Of a stretch of 64,000 nt of DNA, positions 5,481 to 61,253 are shown piece by piece (positions within the stretch are counted from its first letter, which is position 1; the number at the start of each line of letters is the position of its first letter). The position numbers and the translations under genes were made by a program. The notes beneath the pieces are model-generated. The model saw only the letters and a program-made list of their open reading frames with translations, searched no databases and was not told where the DNA came from. The stretch is from Candidatus Daviesbacteria bacterium. GTDB lineage: Bacteria > Patescibacteriota > Microgenomatia > Daviesbacterales > UBA10151. The stretch is taken from the NCBI GenBank assembly GCA_016186955.1, contig JACPKP010000007.1, positions 1,962 through 65,961 of the forward strand. Reading direction: 5' to 3'.

Positions 5481-6902
<1,422 letters not shown>

Positions 6903-21699: not shown

Positions 21700-22173
21700 A
21701 TGAGATCAGGAAAAATTACAAAGAGAAAATTAGCGCCAGACCCGGTATATAATTCAAAACTTGTCACCCGTTTTATCAACAGGGTGATGTTTGACGGAAA
21801 AAAAACAGTTGCCCAAAACCTGGTGTACAAAGCTTTAGAACAAATTGAAAAAAGCGGCAAAAACCCGGTGCAGACCTTTGAGACAGCTATTGCTAATATC
21901 TCCCCCAGGATGGAAGTCAGGCCCAGAAGGGTGGGGGGAGCTTCCTACCAGGTGCCAACTGAGGTGCGGGGTGACAGGAGGGAAGCTTTGGCAATACGAT
22001 GGTTGATCACAGCCGCCAAATCCCGTTCCAACAAGGAATTCCACACTTTCTCGGAAAAATTGGCTGCAGAATTTTTGGCAGCTGCTGAAAACCAGGGTGC
22101 AGCCATTAAGAAAAAAGAAGATATTTCCAGGATGGCTGAAGCTAACAAAGCTTTCGCTCATTTCAGATGGTAA
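21700..22173 (+). CDS. rpsG: 30S ribosomal protein S7
   Basis: Typical S7 sequence; directly follows rpsL. Confidence 0.9.
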   Translation: MRSGKITKRKLAPDPVYNSKLVTRFINRVMFDGKKTVAQNLVYKALEQIEKSGKNPVQTFETAIANISPRMEVRPRRVGGASYQVPTEVRGDRREALAIRWLITAAKSRSNKEFHTFSEKLAAEFLAAAENQGAAIKKKEDISRMAEANKAFAHFRW

Positions 22174-22174
22174 T

Positions 22175-22366
22175 ATGAAAGAATTGACAAGAGATTTAAG
22201 CACGAGACAGGAAGCTATCAAAAACAATTTGAGTGATTTCAAATCTGATTATATGAATTTGCCTTTAAAGTGGAGAGTGGTGGGCACTGTTGCCTTTTTT
22301 GGATCAGCAATTGCAGCTGGAACTGGATTAGGGATTGCAGTAAGTATAGCCAAGTTATATTTTTAG
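22175..22366 (+). CDS. small hypothetical membrane protein (C-terminal TM)
   Basis: The ATG at 22175 immediately follows the rpsG stop. C-terminal VVGTVAFFGSAIAAGTGLGIAVSIA is hydrophobic. Confidence 0.3.
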   Translation: MKELTRDLSTRQEAIKNNLSDFKSDYMNLPLKWRVVGTVAFFGSAIAAGTGLGIAVSIAKLYF

Positions 22367-22376
22367 TTTTTTTTCA

Positions 22377-22401
22377 AATCCCGCCCCCGGGTAATCCTAG
22401 G
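22377..22401. repeat. X-repeat copy 0 (AATCCCGCCCCCGGGTAATCCTAGG)
   Basis: Related copies at 23724-23749 and 24431-24456. Confidence 0.5.
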
Positions 22402-22525
22402 CGCAACTTATGAAAGAACACCTACCAGACTTTAATCCTAAAACTGCTGTTTACATTGAAACAGGAGGCGATAGTGAAGTTTATCAAGTTGGGTTGGTGA
22501 TCTGATAATGTGATAAAATCTGGGT

Positions 22526-23383
22526 ATGGGTCCTGATGAAGAGACTGTGGAACCAGGGTTAGAAACAGAGGAATTGGCCCAAAAGATAAACCCCTTTTGG
22601 GAACAGCCCTATCAGTTGGCAAGAGCAGTTGCCAGAAGATGGAGAAAACCCGAGGCGAAAACAGAGATAGAACCTACTATTGCGTCTACTCACCAGGAAG
22701 ATATCCTTTCAACTAGAGATAAAAAAAACAAGCGGGAATTAGGAGCAGATAGCGCTAATGTTGTACTATTTGTTGAGCTTGAAGATGATGGCTCAGCAAT
22801 ATACAAACCCGTAAGTGGAGAGCAGCCTTACTTAAGACATGGTATTGAAGCAGGGACTTATTATCAAAGAGAACGGGCAGCATACCTAGTAGATAGGTTT
22901 TTAGGTCTCGGTTTAGTTCCACCAACCGTAATACGTGAATTAGATGGTGAGATTGGGAGTTTGCAGCAGTTTATTCCAGAAACAACGGGCAGTTGGGGTG
23001 TGGATCTTTCTCAACTACAAGAAGATTTATATCAACTTTGGGTTTTTGATTATATTATTTGGAATACAGATAGACATTCAGGTAATTTACTTTTTCAGGG
23101 TAATAAGCTTTTCGCAATCGATCATGGTCTGTCTTTTGGGAGTGAGTGTCGTATGTTCATGAGGCATTTTTATGACATTGCCGCTCCCAAACAACTGGTT
23201 GGTCTGCTGGAGCAATTTTTAAAAGATGACAAAAGCAAAAAAATTCTACAAGAACTACTTGAGGAGTTGCTCAGTGAAGATGAGGTAAAGGCTTGTGTGA
23301 GAAGGATTGAACATATCGGTTCTAAATTAATCAAAAATGGTATGATCAAACTTAATGAAGATAGCATTTTCAATCCTGAATAA
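22526..23383 (+). CDS. PI3K/PI4K-like atypical kinase-fold protein
   Basis: Catalytic-loop-like IWNTDRHSGNLLF (DRHxxN) and IDHGLSFG (DFG-equivalent). Upstream AIYKP beta-strand lysine and a conserved Glu in QRERAAYLVDRF. Confidence 0.45.
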   Translation: MGPDEETVEPGLETEELAQKINPFWEQPYQLARAVARRWRKPEAKTEIEPTIASTHQEDILSTRDKKNKRELGADSANVVLFVELEDDGSAIYKPVSGEQPYLRHGIEAGTYYQRERAAYLVDRFLGLGLVPPTVIRELDGEIGSLQQFIPETTGSWGVDLSQLQEDLYQLWVFDYIIWNTDRHSGNLLFQGNKLFAIDHGLSFGSECRMFMRHFYDIAAPKQLVGLLEQFLKDDKSKKILQELLEELLSEDEVKACVRRIEHIGSKLIKNGMIKLNEDSIFNPE

Positions 23384-23388
23384 CACAA

Positions 23389-23643
23389 ATGGCTTATGTA
23401 GAGATCTATAAATTAAATAATGATGGTTCGCAAAAGATTTTGGCTGTTTGCAGGCAGCTTGGGGAAGAGGTGGTTTGTGAAGGAGAGGAAAAGTTCATTG
23501 AATATTTAAATAAAGAGGGGATTAATGATTACAATTCCCCATCCCCGAAAAAATTATTCCCAAAAGACGGTAGGTTGTTTCTTGAACAATTAAAGTACAA
23601 TTTCAAATCAGGATACCTAAATGCCACTGATTTAAAAGAATGA
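23389..23643 (+). CDS. hypothetical protein
   Basis: ORF only; 84 aa; no recognisable motif. Confidence 0.3.
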   Translation: MAYVEIYKLNNDGSQKILAVCRQLGEEVVCEGEEKFIEYLNKEGINDYNSPSPKKLFPKDGRLFLEQLKYNFKSGYLNATDLKE

Positions 23644-23652
23644 ACCGCGTTA

Positions 23653-23719
23653 GGCACAAAAGGCGTCCCCTTTTGAGGCTAAATTAATTTATACCCCCTT
23701 GTTTTAACTGTAACTATTT
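23653..23719. repeat. Y-repeat copy 1: 67-nt exact duplicate of the 3' end of the regulator gene (24481..25785)
   Basis: Identical to 24457-24523. Its reverse complement encodes EIVTVKTRGYKLI*. Confidence 0.7.
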
Positions 23720-23723
23720 TTAA

Positions 23724-23749
23724 AATCCCACCCCCTGGGTGGTCCTGAG
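23724..23749. repeat. X-repeat copy 1 (variant, CCCACC-CCCT-GGGTGG hairpin)
   Basis: AAAATCCCACCCCCTGGGTGGTCCTGAG. Confidence 0.5.
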
Positions 23750-24449
23750 TATAGGTTTCCTTTCATCGAAAAGTTGCGGGCACAACAATTATAAGATATC
23801 ATTCTTGTTTATGGAGAGAATCAGTGTGCAGGAAGCAGGGTTAGAAGGTTTACCCAGGATTAGGGGACATCATCTAAATAAACTGAAAGAGCTCTATGTT
23901 TTTATGAATACTAAAAGGGAATCTTTATCCGAATCAGGATATCAAGGTTCTTTGTCAGGAGAAATGGAAGCTTTAATCAAATTTTTTATTCAGGAACATA
24001 GCAGCGATTTGTTGACATTTGTAGATCCTGCAACCCGTACTTTTGGTTTATCTCAAGAGTGGATGATGAGTTATATAAACGATACAATTGGAGGTATTGA
24101 AGCCGAGAAAGTTAAAATATACAATCAAAAAACATATGAAGCGATTGTAAAATATATTTCATATCCGGCAAGCCAACAAGTTCTATTGACAGTTACCCCG
24201 GATTTTATTTGCAGATTATGTTTAGTGGGAACACATTGTTTAAAAAGCTCAAAATTGATGCCACTTGATTATAGAGAAATCAGAGAATTTTCAAAGTTCC
24301 AAATAAACAGGAGAAGGGATATGCAAATTTATACGGAGGAATTTAAATTTAGCGATCGCCTGAAGCCATTAATCACTAAAGTAGTGTTAACCACCTTTGG
24401 AGATATTAGGTTTTACTTATCTTTTGGTGGAATCCCACCCCCGGGTTAG
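23739..24449 (+). CDS. hypothetical protein on a repeat-flanked cassette
   Basis: ORF bracketed by X/Y repeats. The true start may be MERISVQ at 23811. No recognisable domain. Confidence 0.4.
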   Translation: MVLSIGFLSSKSCGHNNYKISFLFMERISVQEAGLEGLPRIRGHHLNKLKELYVFMNTKRESLSESGYQGSLSGEMEALIKFFIQEHSSDLLTFVDPATRTFGLSQEWMMSYINDTIGGIEAEKVKIYNQKTYEAIVKYISYPASQQVLLTVTPDFICRLCLVGTHCLKSSKLMPLDYREIREFSKFQINRRRDMQIYTEEFKFSDRLKPLITKVVLTTFGDIRFYLSFGGIPPPG

Positions 24450-24523
24450 TCCTAGGCACAAAAGGCGTCCCCTTTTGAGGCTAAATTAATTTATACCCCC
24501 TTGTTTTAACTGTAACTATTTCA
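24431..24523. repeat. X-repeat copy 2 plus Y-repeat copy 2 (native 3' end of the regulator gene)
   Basis: AATCCCACCCCCGGGTTAGTCCTAGG followed by the 67-nt Y sequence. Confidence 0.7.
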
Positions 24524-25785
24524 TAAGAGCTGTTTTGTTGCTTCAGCTTACTCCGGACTCTTGCTACCAGCCTGTCTATTGCCCAATCGGAGACTCCCAA
24601 TTCCTCTTCTTCAGGCCAGACTGCTTCAATTATGGCTTCCCGCTCACATATCTGGTTTAAGTTATTTTGTAGACAAGTAAACAACAGATGTTCTTTTTTA
24701 CTGAGTTCCAACGGTGGCATTTCCAGCGGTTTGGCCCCATTTGTCTGTCTTGATTTGATGAAATTTTCAAAGATCGGGCTAAAAATCCGGGTTTTACCTT
24801 TTTCAGTAGCAACCAGGCCGGTATCCCAAAGGTATTTACTTGAAAGTTGCCCATCTTTTGAAATTTTTTCTTTGGAGACAATCTGAATCAGTGTATCTTG
24901 CTCTGTTTCATTTAAACTGTCCCAGAGTTCTTCGGATTGTAAAGCTATCCTTTCATCCTCTATCAAGGCCGGAAAAAGTTCAAAATTTTTGTTTAAAATT
25001 TTGATTTTTTCTGAGAGAGTAATCAAGGCGAGCAGCAGGTATTGGATATATCCGCCGGAAAACGCAAATAACTCTTCCTTAAATTTTTTGGGAAGGTGCA
25101 AGTTATACTTTCTGGTGTTAACTTTATAGATAGTTTCCAGATCTTTGGGCTCTGCTGTTTTAACATACATCTGGTATACGATTAGGGCGGGAGAGGCTTG
25201 GCTGAATGCCTTGGGTGCAAGCTGGTCTAAACTCCTAAAACTTGTCAAAACATAAGTTAACTGGTGGTTGGTTGCATCATACAGGCTTTCAAGGTTGGCA
25301 AAAAGCTCAGGCGTGACAGCATCTTTAATACGGTCAAAATGGATTAAAAACATTGTCGGGATAAAGCCTGCCTGTGTGATTTTTATCAAGCTTAACCTGA
25401 CACAATCAAATAATAAAAACAGGTCTTTTGATTGAATTGAATCCAAAAAAAGGTTCTCGACATATTTTTTAATTTTAGGTTCCAAATTTAAGCGCTCGCA
25501 GTTATCAACAATCCTTTTTAAAGTTAACATCCAAAATGGGAAAACCTCCCTTTCTACCAAATCATTTAGATCCACATGGATAAATAAATGTTTTTTTCTA
25601 TTTGGAATGTGTTTGTCTATCACCTTTTTATGGCTTAAGAAAAACCTTAAGAAATTGCTGATGCCAACCCGGCGCATACCGATCATAATGATTGTCTGGC
25701 GGTTTTTGAGATAATATCCTAAATTTTGGGAGATCTCTTTCCTGAAGGTTTTTGGGTAATACGATTCCAGGACCGTGTTTACCAT
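24481..25785 (-). CDS. transcriptional regulator: degenerate AAA/STAND-like NTPase domain fused to C-terminal OmpR/PhoB-type winged helix
   Basis: N-terminal IIMIGMRRVGISNFL resembles a Walker A with Lys replaced by Ile. Walker B-like LFIHVDLND. The C-terminus EAVWPEEE...IDRLVARVRSKL...IVTVKTRGYKLI is trans_reg_C-like. Confidence 0.6.
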   Translation of the reverse strand: MVNTVLESYYPKTFRKEISQNLGYYLKNRQTIIMIGMRRVGISNFLRFFLSHKKVIDKHIPNRKKHLFIHVDLNDLVEREVFPFWMLTLKRIVDNCERLNLEPKIKKYVENLFLDSIQSKDLFLLFDCVRLSLIKITQAGFIPTMFLIHFDRIKDAVTPELFANLESLYDATNHQLTYVLTSFRSLDQLAPKAFSQASPALIVYQMYVKTAEPKDLETIYKVNTRKYNLHLPKKFKEELFAFSGGYIQYLLLALITLSEKIKILNKNFELFPALIEDERIALQSEELWDSLNETEQDTLIQIVSKEKISKDGQLSSKYLWDTGLVATEKGKTRIFSPIFENFIKSRQTNGAKPLEMPPLELSKKEHLLFTCLQNNLNQICEREAIIEAVWPEEEELGVSDWAIDRLVARVRSKLKQQNSSYEIVTVKTRGYKLI

Positions 25786-25805
25786 GCAGGTTAATTTTAG
25801 AAGGA

Positions 25806-25862
25806 TTTGGTCAAATTAGCAAATAAATCAGGATTTTGTCAGAATGTGGTCAAAATAGCGTC
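25806..25862. promoter_or_regulatory. direct repeats GGTCAAAWTAGC(N) in the regulator gene's upstream region (possible wHTH operator)
   Basis: GGTCAAATTAGC (25808) and GGTCAAAATAGCG (25848), with a TTGTCAGAATG between them. Confidence 0.25.
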
Positions 25863-25898
25863 AAGCATATATTTTATCCTTGGCAATAAAATATATCA

Positions 25899-26177
25899 GT
25901 GACAGAAAAAGAATGGACGGATTACGGTTATGGTATCTCTCCGCTTTATGCTGCAGAAAACCCGGTGACTTATTTGCCTATTGCCCAGTTTTCTGCTCCT
26001 CTTGAATGTCCGCAGGGAATAATTGTAAAAGAAGCCCAACCGGAACAAAAAATTCAACCCAGACAAATTATTGTCGCACAGCCAAAAGTAGAGTACAGCA
26101 GCTATAAACGGCTACCCTTTTGGCGCAATTTAATAATAATTCTGCAAAAATGGGCGCCCCGTATAGGTTCCATTTGA
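25899..26177 (+). CDS. hypothetical protein
   Basis: ORF only; Gln/Pro-rich. Confidence 0.25.
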   Translation: MTEKEWTDYGYGISPLYAAENPVTYLPIAQFSAPLECPQGIIVKEAQPEQKIQPRQIIVAQPKVEYSSYKRLPFWRNLIIILQKWAPRIGSI

Positions 26178-26237
26178 CTTTTAAGTTCCAAGAGGTTAAT
26201 ATGTTATTCTGTCAAACGAAAAACCACGGAAGTTAAT

Positions 26238-26368
26238 CGTGGATGAAGTTTGCTTCGCCGACAGGCGAATCTCGCCGAAGGCGAGCAGGAAGAGAAACTA
26301 CGGGCGAAGCGAAGCGGAGTCCGTAGAGGCTCATTCTAAAGCACCCCTCTTCAGGGGGCTATTTTTTG
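26238..26368 (+). ncRNA. structured leader/possible small RNA: nested GC stems ending in an intrinsic-terminator-like hairpin plus T6
   Basis: GCTTCGCC...GGCGAAGC long-range pairing, CTCGCC-GAA-GGCGAG and CTACGG...CCGTAG stems, then CCCCTCTTCAGGGGG followed by TTTTTT (26343-26368). Confidence 0.3.
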
Positions 26369-26379
26369 AAATCACACCT

Positions 26380-26628
26380 ATGGATCAGTTAAAAAAACAA
26401 AAGCTTGAAATGTGGCAAAAAAAACTTGAAGGGCTTCAAAAAGAGTTCAAGGAGATTATGGTGCGCAAAGGGGAAGCTGCAGCTGACGGTGACCTTTCAG
26501 AAAATGCAGCATACAAACAGGCTGTGGAGGAGGCTGATATTTGCCTGGTCAGGATCAGTGAAATTAAAAAAATTATAGCTAATTTGGAAGGACCCGCCTC
26601 CGCCAAGGCTCCGGCGGGCAAGGGATAA
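26380..26628 (+). CDS. stand-alone GreA/GreB N-terminal coiled-coil domain protein
   Basis: GDLSENAAYKQA signature of the Gre-factor N-terminal domain, with two Asp/Glu near the coiled-coil tip. No FKBP-like C-domain; 82 aa. Confidence 0.55.
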   Translation: MDQLKKQKLEMWQKKLEGLQKEFKEIMVRKGEAAADGDLSENAAYKQAVEEADICLVRISEIKKIIANLEGPASAKAPAGKG

Positions 26629-26632
26629 TAGA

Positions 26633-28801
26633 ATGGCTGTTACAAAGACTAAGAGAGATTACCCCCTTGATAGGATACGTAACATAGGCATCATTGCCCA
26701 TATTGATGCCGGGAAGACCACCACAACAGAGCGGATCTTATTTTATACCGGTAAAACTTATAAAATAGGTAATATTGATGAAGGCACTACCACAACTGAT
26801 TGGATGGAACAGGAAAAGGAACGTGGTATTACAATAGTTTCTGCTGCTATAACCGCTTCCTGGACTGCCAAGTCAGGACCTTTTCAAGACCAGGAGATGA
26901 GGATTAATTTAATTGATACCCCCGGGCATGTGGATTTTACAGTGGAGGTAGAGCGGTCCTTGCGGGTTTTGGACGGAGGGGTGATTGTTTTGGATGCAGC
27001 CTCTGGTGTGCAGTCCCAGACCGAGACTGTCTGGAGGCAGGCCAATAAATACCATGTTCCTCTGATTGCATTTGCCAACAAGATGGATGTGGTTGGGGCT
27101 GATTTTTTGGGCACAATCCAGTCAGCCAGAGATAGATTAGGGGCAAACGCTATCGCCTATAACCTGCCGATTGGTGCGGAAACCAGTTTTAAAGGGGTTG
27201 TGGATTTGTTGGGTAATGATGAGAAGGGTGCTTTCGCGATTGTTTGGGAGCAAAGTGGTTCTGATTTTGATCCCAGTGGTTCAAAATTTAACATAACAGA
27301 TATTCCAGAAGATATGAAAATTGCAGTTGAGGAGCACAGAAATAAATTGATTGAAGAGATTTGTGCTACGGATGAAGTTTTATTGGAACAGTTTCTTAAT
27401 GGTAAGAAGATTGCTGTTAATGATTTGAAGTTAGCTTTGAGAAAAGCAGTAATTGCTGAAAAAATTGTCCCGGTTATGGCAGGTTCTTCACTTCGCAATA
27501 AAGGGGTGCAACCAATGCTTGATAATGTGGTTAATTTTTTGCCTTCCCCCCAGGATTTGCCTGAGATTAAAGGGCTTGACCCTAAAACCCAAGAGGAAAA
27601 GATTTTTCAGAATGTAAAAGATGCCCCTTTGGGCGCTTTGGCTTTTAAAATCCAGGTTGACCCTCATGTTGGGAGGCTCACTTATGTTAGGGTTTATTCT
27701 GGGATTTTAAAATCAGGTTCATATCTTTACAACTCAACAAAAGATGTAAAAGAGCGGGTAGGGAGGGTGCTTTTAATGCACGCCAATGATAGGGAGGAGA
27801 TTGATGAAGCTTTTGCAGGGGAAATTATAGCAGTAGTGGGGTTGAAAGATACTGTGACTGGAGATACGCTTTGTGATGATTCAAACCCGATTGTTTTGGA
27901 ATCCATTACTTTTGCAGAACCTGTGATCTCTCTTGCTATTGAACCCAAAACTAAATCAGACCAGGAAAAACTGGCTTATTCTTTGCAAAGACTGGGGGAA
28001 GAAGACCCAACATTTCGGGTAAAATCTAACCCTGAGACAGGACAGACTATTATCTCCGGTATGGGAGAGCTCCATCTGGAGATTATTGTGGACAGGATGA
28101 AAAGGGAGTTTAAGGTGGAGGCGAATATTGGAGAGCCTCAGGTTGCATACCGGGAAACTATCCAAAAAGAAGCAAGGGGTGAGGGTAAGTACATCAGGCA
28201 GACTGGTGGCAGAGGCCAATACGGACATTGCTTGCTTAGGATTGAACCTCTTCCCAGGGGCCAGGGACGGGAATTTGTCTCAGAAGTTGTGGGTGGGGCA
28301 ATACCAAGGGAGTTTATTCCGGCTATCGAAAAAGGGGTTATTGAAAAAGAAGACACCGGAATGTTGGCCGGTTTTCCGGTAACGGATATCAAAGTTGCGG
28401 TTTATGACGGGTCATATCATGATGTTGATTCATCTGAGATTGCATTTAAAATTGCCGGATCCTTAGGGCTTTCCGAGGCTGCCAAAGAGGCGGATATGAT
28501 ACTTTTGGAGCCTATTATGAAGGTGGAAGTGACAACGCCTGAGGAATTTATGGGAGATCTGATTGGGGATTTATCTTCAAAACGGGCACAGATCCTGGGT
28601 ACTGAGAAAAGGCATAATTCAAGCGTGATTAATGCTTTGGTGCCTCTTGCAGAACTTGGAGGTTATATAACTGCCATAAGGTCAATGTCACAAGGTCGTG
28701 CTTCAGCCTACATTGAGCCCTCCCATTATGAGAGTGTGCCAAGTAACATTACCCAAAAAATTGTTGCATCTTCAGGGTTCACTGGCAGAGTTGAGCATTA
28801 A
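26633..28801 (+). CDS. fusA: elongation factor G
   Basis: AHIDAGKTTTTERIL, DTPGHVDF, NKMD; full length. Confidence 0.95.
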   Translation: MAVTKTKRDYPLDRIRNIGIIAHIDAGKTTTTERILFYTGKTYKIGNIDEGTTTTDWMEQEKERGITIVSAAITASWTAKSGPFQDQEMRINLIDTPGHVDFTVEVERSLRVLDGGVIVLDAASGVQSQTETVWRQANKYHVPLIAFANKMDVVGADFLGTIQSARDRLGANAIAYNLPIGAETSFKGVVDLLGNDEKGAFAIVWEQSGSDFDPSGSKFNITDIPEDMKIAVEEHRNKLIEEICATDEVLLEQFLNGKKIAVNDLKLALRKAVIAEKIVPVMAGSSLRNKGVQPMLDNVVNFLPSPQDLPEIKGLDPKTQEEKIFQNVKDAPLGALAFKIQVDPHVGRLTYVRVYSGILKSGSYLYNSTKDVKERVGRVLLMHANDREEIDEAFAGEIIAVVGLKDTVTGDTLCDDSNPIVLESITFAEPVISLAIEPKTKSDQEKLAYSLQRLGEEDPTFRVKSNPETGQTIISGMGELHLEIIVDRMKREFKVEANIGEPQVAYRETIQKEARGEGKYIRQTGGRGQYGHCLLRIEPLPRGQGREFVSEVVGGAIPREFIPAIEKGVIEKEDTGMLAGFPVTDIKVAVYDGSYHDVDSSEIAFKIAGSLGLSEAAKEADMILLEPIMKVEVTTPEEFMGDLIGDLSSKRAQILGTEKRHNSSVINALVPLAELGGYITAIRSMSQGRASAYIEPSHYESVPSNITQKIVASSGFTGRVEH

Positions 28802-28900: not shown

Positions 28901-29455
28901 ATGAAACAAGCCCGCTGCGTGATTATTATTGATGGGAGTAACTTCTACTTCAAGTTAAAAGATTTGGATTTACATTATGAACTGCAATTTGATTTCTCTG
29001 GTTTTGCTAAATTGCTGGCTGGTAAGAATAAAATTGCGAGGTGTGTGTACTATGTGGGTGCGGTAAGAACAGATGGTACAAAACATACCCAAAAGTTGTT
29101 TAATAAGCAGCAGAAACTTTTTGCAAATCTCAAGAAACATAATTTTCAATATTCGCTTGGATATTTGTTGAAATCTGGCGGAAAAATGCATGAAAAAGGA
29201 GTAGATGTTAATATGGCTGTTGATATAGTTAAAGGTGCGCTAAAAGATGAGTTTGAACATTTTATTATAGTCAGCTCGGACACGGATTTGTTACCAGCTA
29301 TATTAGTAGTCAAAGAAGCGGGCAAAACTATTGAATATATAGGATTTTCTCATCAAGCAAGTTTGGCGATGGTAGCTAATTGTTCCGAATCCAGGTTATT
29401 GAAAAAAGAGGATTTACTACCTTTTGTAAGTCGCAAAATATCACCCAAAAAATAG
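28901..29455 (+). CDS. NYN-domain (LabA/PIN-like) nuclease-fold protein
   Basis: IIIDGSNF and FIIVSSDTDL motifs typical of the NYN/DUF88 PIN-like fold. Confidence 0.65.
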   Translation: MKQARCVIIIDGSNFYFKLKDLDLHYELQFDFSGFAKLLAGKNKIARCVYYVGAVRTDGTKHTQKLFNKQQKLFANLKKHNFQYSLGYLLKSGGKMHEKGVDVNMAVDIVKGALKDEFEHFIIVSSDTDLLPAILVVKEAGKTIEYIGFSHQASLAMVANCSESRLLKKEDLLPFVSRKISPKK

Positions 29456-37692: not shown

Positions 37693-37695
37693 AAA

Positions 37696-38556
37696 ATGGC
37701 GCTAATTAGTTACAAAGAAAACACACCAACCAGAAGGTTTATGACCAAGCTCGAAAAACCAAAGAAAAACGGTAAACATCATAAATCCCTGGTCAGTATA
37801 CTGCCGAAACAAAGCGGCCGGTCGCATGGCAAAGTTACAGTCCGCCACCAGGGCGGAAGGCACAAGAGATATTACAGGTTAGTTGATTTCAAAAGGAATA
37901 AATTTGGAGTAGAAGCAGTAGTGGAAGCTTTTGAGTATGACCCAAACAGGAATGTCAATATTGCCCTGGTTAAATATGCCGATGGTGAGAGAAGATACAT
38001 CTTAGCGCCTTCAGGTTTAAAGCCGGGGGATAGAGTGATATCAGGAGAAAGGGTTGAAGTAAAGGTTGGCAATGCCATGAAACTTAAAAATATGCCTGTA
38101 GGTACAATAGTCCATAATGTGGAGTTGACACCGGGCAGAGGAGGCCAGTTTGGGCGTAGTGCAGGTACAGGGTTGACTATCCAGGCGAAAGATAGCGGCC
38201 TGCCTGCCGACCTGCCTGACGGCAGTCAGGGCAGGCAGGGGTTTGCGCACTTGAAAATGCCCTCAGGAGAGATTAGAATGGTTCCCCTGGAGGCTATGGG
38301 GACTGTTGGAAGCTTGGGTAACGAAGAATGGAAGAATGTTACTTTTGGTAAGGCTGGAAGAAAAAGGCATATGGGGATCAGGCCGACTGTCAGGGGGACA
38401 GCCCAGGATCCCCACTCACATCCGCATGGTGGAGGAGAGGGCAGGTCAGGAATCGGCAGAAAAAGCCCCATGACGGTATACGGTAAAAAGGCAGTGGGAA
38501 ATACCAGAAAAAAGAATAAATGGACAAGCAAGTATATTTTGAAAAGGAGGAAATAG
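37696..38556 (+). CDS. rplB: 50S ribosomal protein L2 with ~14-aa internal insertion
   Basis: L2 core (HGGGEGR...). The insertion LPADLPDGSQGRQG is encoded by a ~41-nt palindrome. Confidence 0.9.
   Translation: MALISYKENTPTRRFMTKLEKPKKNGKHHKSLVSILPKQSGRSHGKVTVRHQGGRHKRYYRLVDFKRNKFGVEAVVEAFEYDPNRNVNIALVKYADGERRYILAPSGLKPGDRVISGERVEVKVGNAMKLKNMPVGTIVHNVELTPGRGGQFGRSAGTGLTIQAKDSGLPADLPDGSQGRQGFAHLKMPSGEIRMVPLEAMGTVGSLGNEEWKNVTFGKAGRKRHMGIRPTVRGTAQDPHSHPHGGGEGRSGIGRKSPMTVYGKKAVGNTRKKNKWTSKYILKRRK
38199..38239. repeat. GC-rich palindrome CCTGCCTGCCGACCTGCCTGACGGCAGTCAGGGCAGGCAGG in-frame inside rplB
   Basis: Outer arms CCTGCCTGC/GCAGGCAGG; shares the CTGCCGAC core with the intergenic copies. Confidence 0.65.
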
Positions 38557-61182: not shown

Positions 61183-61253
61183 CGGGGAGTAGTATAGTGG
61201 TAACACGCCGCGCTGGGGGTGCGGCATCGGGAGTTCGATTCTCCCCTCCCCGA
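61183..61253 (+). tRNA. tRNA-Pro (anticodon GGG)
   Basis: Hand-folded. Acceptor CGGGGAG/CTCCCCG with C1-G72 and A73 (the bacterial tRNA-Pro identity). D-loop AGTGGTA with G18G19. Anticodon stem CCGCG/UGCGG, loop CUGGGGG. T-arm GGGAG-TTCGATT-CTCCC. No encoded CCA. Confidence 0.7.

Follow-up and report, generated by a model that had tools for sequence, protein, structure and literature searches.

A minimal type II PI4K-like kinase and its small partner gene in Candidatus Daviesbacteria and other Patescibacteria

Type II phosphatidylinositol 4-kinases (type II PI4Ks, or PI4KII) of eukaryotes and the SCO1664 family of bacteria are the closest described relatives of the small kinase gene considered here, which lies on the forward strand of a 64,000-nucleotide stretch of contig JACPKP010000007.1 (positions 1,962 to 65,961 of the contig; this whole stretch is termed the window below) and is followed within a few nucleotides by a gene for an 84-residue protein, its partner. 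The source is a metagenome-assembled genome (MAG) of Candidatus Daviesbacteria, a member of the Microgenomates group of the Patescibacteria, which are ultra-small bacteria with very small genomes. In plants, type II PI4Ks "fail to synthesize PI4P" (phosphatidylinositol 4-phosphate) and act as Ser/Thr protein kinases (PMC4986951). SCO1664, in turn, has been described as an actinobacterial signature protein with an invariable link to mshC (PMC4255298). In the literature searched, neither a functional study of the SCO1664 kinase, Rv2133c, Rv2134c, or DUF3090 (PF11290), the protein family whose gene adjoins SCO1664-type kinases, nor a paper describing the kinase or the partner discussed here was found; a 2026 preprint on kinase-like domains of the oral microbiome concerns a different family.

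The kinase fold and the superfamily are already known, and Pfam annotation already tags these proteins. What appears to be undescribed comprises, firstly, a separate clade of minimal kinases of the type II PI4K kind in Patescibacteria; secondly, the near-obligate pairing of these kinases with an orphan 84-residue protein that seems to evolve under constraint at the level of ribosomal proteins; and, thirdly, an exchange of partner relative to the SCO1664/DUF3090 clade. The kinase gene and the 84-residue gene form a tightly spaced two-gene module that is kept across Patescibacteria while the other neighbours change.

The kinase and its superfamily

The open reading frame (ORF) 22526-23383 encodes a minimal PI3K/PI4K-superfamily kinase with a core of about 230 residues, closest to the eukaryotic type II PI4Ks. 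The gene and its motifs, in the coordinates of the window, are as follows:

22526..23383, plus strand: kinase gene, an ATG-to-TAA ORF of 285 residues (MBI2595886.1, GenBank label 'hypothetical protein')
22805..22807, plus strand: codon of Lys94, the predicted beta3 ATP-binding lysine, in 'IYKP' (residues 92-95; 'FKPK' in the family)
22871..22873, plus strand: codon of Glu116, the predicted alphaC glutamate pairing with Lys94, in 'RERAAY' (residues 115-120; 'RERAAYLVD')
22955..22972, plus strand: hinge motif 'GSLQQF' (residues 144-149), aligned with PI4KII 'GSFQLF'
23069..23086, plus strand: catalytic loop DRHSGN (residues 182-187), aligned with PI4KII 'DRGNDN'
23120..23128, plus strand: DHG (residues 199-201, in 'AIDHGLSF'), the DFG equivalent with the predicted metal-binding Asp199, aligned with PI4KII 'AIDNGLAF'

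Residues 1-50 are variable and predicted to be disordered, and residues from about 55 to 285 make up the minimal type-II-PI4K-like core in an AlphaFold2 model (predicted local distance difference test score, pLDDT, 86.8; predicted template modelling score, pTM, 0.83) that was built on a 40-sequence alignment of homologues. In this model, Lys94 lies within the predicted strand 89-95, Glu116 within helix 112-126, DRHSGN in the loop following the long helix 161-177, and Asp199 directly past strand 194-197. Residues K94, G144, S145, Q147, D175 (in 'FDYII', residues 174-178), D182, R183, N187, I198, and D199 are invariant in the 40-sequence alignment, and E116, N180, and G201 are conserved in at least 90% of it.

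A first-pass annotation made from the sequence alone had read this ORF as a PI3K/PI4K-like atypical kinase of a minimal-genome bacterium, neither a Hanks kinase nor HipA, pointing to DRHSGN with an upstream Lys/Glu pair and to a DHG motif about 20 residues downstream, with the DRH and DHG residues taken to occupy catalytic positions. The analysis bears this reading out: K94, E116, and residues 182-187 are present, the Asp of DHG lies 17 residues downstream of the Asp of DRH, the description of the organism is reasonable for a Daviesbacteria MAG, and the best profile, solved-structure sequence, and fold matches are all PI3K/PI4K-family kinases. Pfam PI3_PI4_kinase (PF00454) matches residues 104-212 at 43.1 bits (gathering score 27.1, E 6.2e-11); HipA_2 (23.9 bits, cut-off 27), Fam20C (19.1 bits, cut-off 26.8), and ABC1 stay below their cut-offs, and no Hanks Pkinase family is found among the Pfam matches even at E<=10. 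In NCBIfam, TIGR03843 ('SCO1664 family protein') aligns in two stretches at 103.8 bits (E 9e-30) without reaching its cut-off of 172.4, and the match to YjjJ is only 13.9 bits. The earlier assignment can be refined: within the superfamily, the kinase resembles the type II PI4Ks in particular, and among bacterial proteins it is related to the SCO1664/TIGR03843 family.

Comparison of the model with the PDB by Foldseek ranks human PI4KII alpha/beta first (E 1e-10, probability 1.0, query-normalised template modelling score, TMq, 0.5-0.6), with a root-mean-square deviation of 3.4 Å over 214 columns to the PI4KII beta chain 9hhm_B, and the next tiers are Fam20A/C (E 1e-7), VPS34 (2e-6), and Helicobacter pylori CtkA (1.5e-5), p110 also being matched. 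Searching PDB sequences with the kinase-family profile retrieves PI4K2B (6e-17), PI4K2A (2e-16), and FAM20A (2e-11). Taken together, the PF00454 score, the TIGR03843 E-value, and the 613 homologues described below place the motif signal of the kinase far beyond chance.

The correspondence of residues between the kinase and PI4KII is taken from hidden Markov model (HMM) alignment and predicted secondary structure rather than from superposed coordinates. It sets the DRH region against the PI4KII catalytic loop NTDRGNDN, the DHG against the metal-binding motif AIDNGL, and Glu116 against the Glu of 'SEAGAYLVD', the last within a stretch marked significant by HMMER (7.5 bits). The paired motifs, with the family profile given first and PI4KII second, are:

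giFKPKsge and GVFKPKSEE (PI4K2B): -1.8 bits, flagged '?' and not significant alone, a motif identity only
rERAAYLvdrfL..VPpT and SEAGAYLVDNKLHLSIVPKT: stretch marked significant by HMMER
eiGSlQeFi and KIGSFQLFV: stretch marked significant by HMMER
fDYIIwNsDRhggNfLv and LDYIIRNTDRGNDNWLV: stretch marked significant by HMMER
AIDNGLsF and AIDNGLAF: stretch marked significant by HMMER

The nucleotide-binding Gly-rich loop, to which the first-pass annotation had also drawn attention, is found in a degenerate form only, as 'GADSAN' at residues 73-78 (family consensus 'GGxN'). This degeneracy could be taken as a sign of a pseudokinase or of a decaying gene without a catalytic role, and so could the orthologue of a Yanofskybacteria MAG (L024 5842-6737), which is apparently frameshifted into two pieces (5842-6240 / 6213-6737) by a frameshift or an assembly error, its downstream partner gene being intact. 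However, the ORF in the window is intact, K94, D182, N187, and D199 do not vary among 40 diverse homologues, the structure model is confident, and hundreds of conserved homologues exist, so that we regard a loss of catalytic function as extremely improbable. Because its catalytic residues are conserved across these homologues, the kinase is probably catalytically competent.

Bacterial relatives and the two-gene module

Bacterial members of this superfamily had been called rare in the first-pass annotation, a statement that does not hold for a kinase with hundreds of Patescibacteria clusters and an actinobacterial 'signature' family among its relatives. A protein search yielded 613 homologue clusters at E<=1e-3, most of them with a precomputed PF00454 assignment. 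The best of these are 45-52% identical to the kinase, 250-290 residues long, and derived with few exceptions from MAGs of Patescibacteria, including Minisyncoccia, Yanofskybacteria, Sungbacteria, and Harrisonbacteria; source names, where given, are nearly always 'hypothetical protein', and the longer homologues carry no additional Pfam domains.

When the species representatives of GTDB were scanned, 55 kinase loci were obtained. Loci L006-L031 are mostly titled Patescibacteria and reach 190-332 bits with the family HMM, except for L030 (titled Thermoplasmatales) at 145 bits; two titles in this set, Gammaproteobacteria and Thermoplasmatales, look mis-binned. Loci L032-L060 (75-132 bits) come mostly from Actinomycetota and Chloroflexota, together with L033 (titled Saccharibacteria) and three Acidobacteriota-type loci. 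The scores separate the two clades cleanly, at 145-380 bits (most at least 190) versus 75-132, and an hhalign comparison of the Patescibacteria clade with the SCO1664 clade gives a probability of 99.96% (E 9e-39, 33% identity over 208 columns). By these measures, the Patescibacteria kinases are the sister clade of the SCO1664/TIGR03843 family. Moreover, when profiles of equal size (8 sequences each) are run against solved structures, that of the Patescibacteria clade retrieves PI4K2B (3.8e-10), FAM20A (2.7e-9), and PI4K2A (1.3e-8), and that of the SCO1664 clade matches no solved structure at E<=0.01; in these profile comparisons, the clade of the window is nearer than the SCO1664 clade to eukaryotic type II PI4K. 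The Acidobacteriota-type loci L054, L057, and L060 represent a third bacterial clade with the motifs NVDRNxxN and IDHSRSF, and neither DUF3090 nor the 84-residue partner is found near these kinases or near that of L033.

More distant relatives (110-130 bits) are encoded on five IMG/VR contigs, again with neither DUF3090 nor the 84-residue partner nearby, and the kinase of the window itself matches phrog_3162 at 43.8 bits. The fold is, on this sequence evidence, also used by phages, without the two-gene module. One of the viral ORFs (731 residues) has PF00454 at its C-terminus and Phage minor capsid protein 2 at its N-terminus, perhaps a kinase delivered with the virion, and another relative is part of a 1009-residue ORF in which an intein splicing domain is matched below threshold (25.3 bits, cut-off 35.8). 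Large kinase-containing ORFs are located at L070 3462-5654, L069 2748-5774, and L066 4116-6215.

The second gene of the module, which the first-pass annotation had overlooked and which is the most informative feature of the locus, follows the kinase gene directly:

23384..23388, plus strand: spacer from the kinase stop to the partner start, 5 nt of sequence
23389..23643, plus strand: partner gene, an ORF of 84 residues (MBI2595887.1, GenBank label 'hypothetical protein')

In the first three homologue neighbourhoods, an ORF of about 84 residues without a Pfam match lies directly after the kinase gene, and the other genes are unrelated, the flanks being the tuf/S10 operon in one case, RNase Y with ClpP in another, and RecQ in the third. 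Five of the small downstream proteins align over their full length, the window protein being 57% identical to three of them. With an HMM of this partner, the gene was detected directly downstream of the kinase and on the same strand in 24/26 of the loci L006-L031 and in 0 of L032-L060. Of 29 distinct Patescibacteria-type loci, all have the kinase and 27 have the partner by HMM (25 by blastp, the difference being one locus cut by a contig end and one weak match). The pair was seen again in two further look-ups, L064 among them, of which one concerns the same contig as L021, and in the Logan contigs of the window. Divergent versions of the partner were sought downstream of the kinases of L015, L018, and L033, and the proteins encoded there are not related to the 84-residue protein.

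The distance from the kinase stop to the partner ATG ranges from -14 to +34 nt in 30 loci and is typically 2-5 nt, with an ATGA overlap in 6 rows (5 distinct contigs), a spacing consistent with a shared transcript and translational coupling. The flanking genes are entirely different from one locus to the next, and an all-vs-all comparison of the ORFs within +/-5 kb revealed no third recurring gene, e.g., a phosphatase, only antisense shadows of the kinase gene being recurrent.

In the sister clade, the small gene is a different one. DUF3090 adjoins the kinase in 25/29 of the loci L032-L060 (L032, L034-L053, L055, L056, L058, and L059), usually directly upstream of the SCO1664-type kinase, often only a few nucleotides away or overlapping, and convergently downstream in Nanopelagicales-type loci; DUF3090 matches are absent from the window and from all Patescibacteria-type loci. 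The DUF3090 protein, for which no solved structure was found, carries a C-terminal zinc-ribbon-like motif, CxxC...HxC. In L046, the one locus of this group that was scanned with Pfam, the neighbourhood of the gene pair additionally encodes a histidine phosphatase and an MshC-like ligase, so that Actinomycetota have a set of kinase, small protein, and phosphatase. Since the two sister clades are each locked to a different small protein gene, the comparison suggests that a dedicated small protein partner is a general, intrinsic feature of these bacterial kinases.

The 84-residue partner belongs to a family of 361 clusters at 90% identity, with 237 representatives at 50% identity in a library of 1.84 billion proteins, nearly all of them stand-alone proteins of 80-95 residues. 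It matches no family of Pfam, NCBIfam, PADLOC, or PHROG, and a relationship to DUF3090 was ruled out (hhalign probability 0.2%). Its confident AlphaFold2 model (pLDDT 91.3, pTM 0.76) is a compact alpha/beta fold that begins with three strands, continues with two helices joined by a loop, and ends in a short hairpin at the C-terminus. Searches with this fold gave no significant match, the best hits having E 0.31 in the PDB and E 0.11 in BFVD. In an alignment of 257 sequences, G32, G44, D60, G61, F64, L65, L68, Y76, and A79 are conserved in at least 90%; position 74, a serine in the window, is Ser/Thr in 85% and position 80 in 84%. S74, Y76, and S/T80 are candidate phospho-acceptors. Among the retrieved proteins, P0275, P0277, P0304, and P0353 (937-3857 residues) match the partner profile through 7-11 short stretches each and are probably repeat or compositional artefacts; P0350/P0358 (167-183 residues), considered as partner fusions, have only partial profile stretches and look spurious.

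How strongly the two genes are constrained can be gauged from three Parcubacteria-type loci in which genes of the str operon are present as well. Relative to the window, the partner is 56-62% identical in these loci and the kinase 38-48%, compared with 57-65% for S12, 53% for S7, 43-55% for S10 (the 43% over 47 residues only), 71-74% for EF-Tu, and 47% for ORF 37693-38553, whose L2 label is tentative and lacks profile confirmation. Constraint on the partner is, as estimated from these identities, at the level of ribosomal proteins such as S7 and S12, and housekeeping rates in both genes argue against a fast-evolving toxin-antitoxin, immunity, or effector pair.

This bears on the possibility that the module is a HipA-type toxin-antitoxin or anti-phage defence pair in which the small downstream protein would neutralise a kinase toxin. 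The layout is indeed that of a two-gene cassette whose second gene is small, phage contigs carry related kinases, the catalytic loop matches HipA_2 weakly (the 23.9 bits given above), and the PADLOC candidates PDC-M66A and PDC-M03A are matched at 28 and 22 bits. However, these matches are below cut-off or confined to about 50 residues at the catalytic loop, the partner shows neither a DNA-binding domain nor membership of a known antitoxin family, its slow, ribosomal-protein-like evolution is the opposite of that of typical antitoxin and immunity proteins, and the module is single-copy in each locus and placed among housekeeping genes instead of defence islands. A defence role of this kind is, therefore, very improbable.

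Function of the pair

We consider it an evenly balanced proposition that the kinase is a protein kinase and that the 84-residue protein is its dedicated substrate or an obligate subunit. In such a scheme, deduced from the motif alignment with PI4KII, Lys94 and Glu116 would position ATP by binding its phosphates, Asp182 and Asn187 of DRHSGN would carry out phosphotransfer and coordinate one metal, and the other metal would be bound by Asp199 of IDHG. Candidate acceptor sites of the partner lie within its conserved C-terminal motif F-x-S-G-Y-L-x-A-S/T, and the pair would operate as a small cytoplasmic phospho-switch with a housekeeping job rather than as a phosphoinositide kinase. This protein-kinase reading is preferred because the pairing with the partner is exclusive, because the PI4KII insertions and the cysteine-pair anchor are absent, because no lipid or inositol gene recurs in the neighbourhood, because plant type II PI4Ks phosphorylate proteins, and because the fold match that comes next, Fam20C, is itself a protein kinase. 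Moreover, the phage relative fused to a minor capsid protein offers a precedent for protein substrates on this fold.

Several observations weigh against the proposal. What links kinase and partner is gene adjacency and co-conservation, the closest solved structures are lipid kinases, and the conserved Ser and Tyr of the partner may be purely structural. In L015 and L018, good kinases are encoded and the partner is absent nearby. Furthermore, no natural fusion of kinase and partner occurs among the 240 proteins retrieved, and the best 150 of the 237 partner-family representatives are almost all standalone proteins of 62-136 residues, with no whole-domain fusion.

Alternatively, the enzyme could be a true lipid, inositol, or other small-molecule kinase, with the 84-residue protein as an accessory, i.e., an activator, a substrate carrier, or a localisation factor. 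The PI4KII alpha/beta lipid kinases are its best matches in both fold and sequence, and an MshC-like neighbour is present in L046, which recalls the link of the SCO1664 family to the mycothiol gene mshC and its inositol-based chemistry (PMC4255298). However, the kinase lacks the PI4KII insertions, where the alignment carries gaps of 20-39 residues, and its 285 residues include no transmembrane or hydrophobic segment and no adjacent cysteines that could serve as a cysteine-pair anchor. No lipid or inositol gene recurs beside the module and, to our knowledge, Patescibacteria are generally without phosphatidylinositol synthesis. In addition, phosphorylated phosphatidylinositol is regarded as eukaryote-specific (PMC3024228), and the plant type II PI4Ks, which share these motifs, make no PI4P (PMC4986951). 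On balance, a lipid, inositol, or other small-molecule kinase appears unlikely, but it is the main rival of the protein-kinase reading.

A further scenario is that the kinase is exported as an effector to phosphorylate a lipid or protein in the host cell of the epibiont, the small acidic partner (pI, isoelectric point, 5.2) acting as a chaperone. Known bacterial PI-kinase-like proteins, e.g., those among the Legionella effectors, have hosts as their targets, Patescibacteria are considered host-dependent, and the virion protein to which the phage relative is fused could be injected. However, the N-terminus of the kinase is acidic and disordered and shows no signal-peptide-like sequence, no secretion-system gene recurs nearby, the sister SCO1664 clade is found in free-living Actinomycetota and Chloroflexota, and the slow, housekeeping-like evolution of both genes is unusual for effectors. 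We give this scenario only a slim chance.

Beyond the choice of substrate, a broader claim can be put forward only tentatively, and we hold it to be rather doubtful in its entirety: that the pair is a previously unrecognised two-protein phospho-signalling module under housekeeping constraint in reduced genomes, that the partner has a fold new to the PDB and viral structure sets, and that, among prokaryotes, the Patescibacteria clade, and not SCO1664, stands nearest to the type II PI4K and Fam20 kinases of eukaryotes. If the last point is true, it bears on the origin of these eukaryotic kinases, and the unusually close motif match to eukaryotic type II PI4K makes the clade a useful outgroup for studying how that kinase family arose. 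A gene pair conserved at the level of ribosomal proteins in very small genomes likely has an important role. Moreover, the pairing turns the kinase into a directly testable hypothesis, i.e., binding or phosphorylation between two small soluble proteins, and the parallel with SCO1664/DUF3090 suggests that the same logic could explain an actinobacterial 'signature' gene, one that Mycobacterium carries as well.

Surroundings of the module and comparison with known systems

In the window, a stretch of about 4.4 kb (22174-26632) that includes the module splits the str operon between rpsG (21700-22173) and fusA (26633-28801). The other features of this region and of the window are:

22175-22366, plus strand: ORF of 63 residues with a hydrophobic C-terminal segment, just after rpsG
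22481..22509, plus strand: possible sigma-70-like promoter TTATCA-17-GATAAT from a consensus scan, 17 nt upstream of the kinase ATG, a weak lead
23739-24449: ORF of 236 residues in the str-operon gap, no family match
24481-25785, minus strand: protein of 434 residues with a C-terminal OmpR/PhoB-type winged-helix domain (Trans_reg_C, 59.5 bits)
26239-26628: ORF of 129 residues in the str-operon gap, matching only the N-terminal domain of GreA
28901-29455, plus strand: NYN-domain protein (predicted RNase fold), directly after fusA
61183-61253, plus strand: the single tRNA gene of the window (Rfam gathering search)

The scan for promoters and terminators in the region did not rise above shuffled background (14 sites vs 11.1 +/- 3.4 expected), and no Rfam family was found near the kinase gene. 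The 63-residue ORF has no family match and does not recur in other loci; it is called as a gene on a Logan contig of the same organism (L063 1310-1501). The 434-residue protein, in which an N-terminal region with a weak AAA-ATPase match replaces the receiver domain, is an unusual one-component regulator, and it does not recur beside the kinase in other loci either. The module lies beside rpsL, rpsG, fusA, or tuf in the window, L001, L012, and L024; a functional link to the str operon was considered and set aside, the module being placed elsewhere in >20 other loci, so that the association is suggestive at most. In a Minisyncoccia MAG (L001 3835-5958; L002 387-2510), a 707-residue fusion of an arginase-family protein with deoxyhypusine synthase, unusual for a bacterium, is encoded directly upstream of the kinase gene.

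Set against the systems described so far, the kinase of the window is nearest to PI4KII alpha/beta and the plant PI4K-gamma enzymes, with which it shares the near-identical motifs FKPK, E-AAYLVD, GSxQxF, DYIIxNxDRxxxNxL, and AIDNGLxF. However, its core spans about 230 residues, compared with 340-385 in the crystallised PI4KII catalytic domains, and it lacks their long insertions, at which the alignment opens its gaps. PI4K2A/B carry the cysteine-rich palmitoylation motif CCPCC, and such a cysteine-pair membrane anchor is not present in the bacterial protein. Furthermore, unlike the eukaryotic enzymes, the kinase is bacterial, predicted to be cytoplasmic, and paired with an 84-residue protein that has no eukaryotic counterpart. 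Fam20C/Fam20A and H. pylori CtkA are likewise atypical protein kinases with a DRH-type catalytic loop, but they are secreted or eukaryotic proteins, or host-directed effectors, and none of them has a comparable small partner. With HipA/HipB, the module has in common an atypical kinase with a D-x-H-x-x-N-like catalytic loop and the arrangement as a two-gene cassette with a small protein, whereas the small gene is here located downstream, encodes no helix-turn-helix domain, and is highly conserved. Finally, the SCO1664 family shares with the kinase the motifs VPPTVIR, DRxxxH/N, and IDHG, and its kinase, too, is a stand-alone protein tightly linked to one small protein gene.

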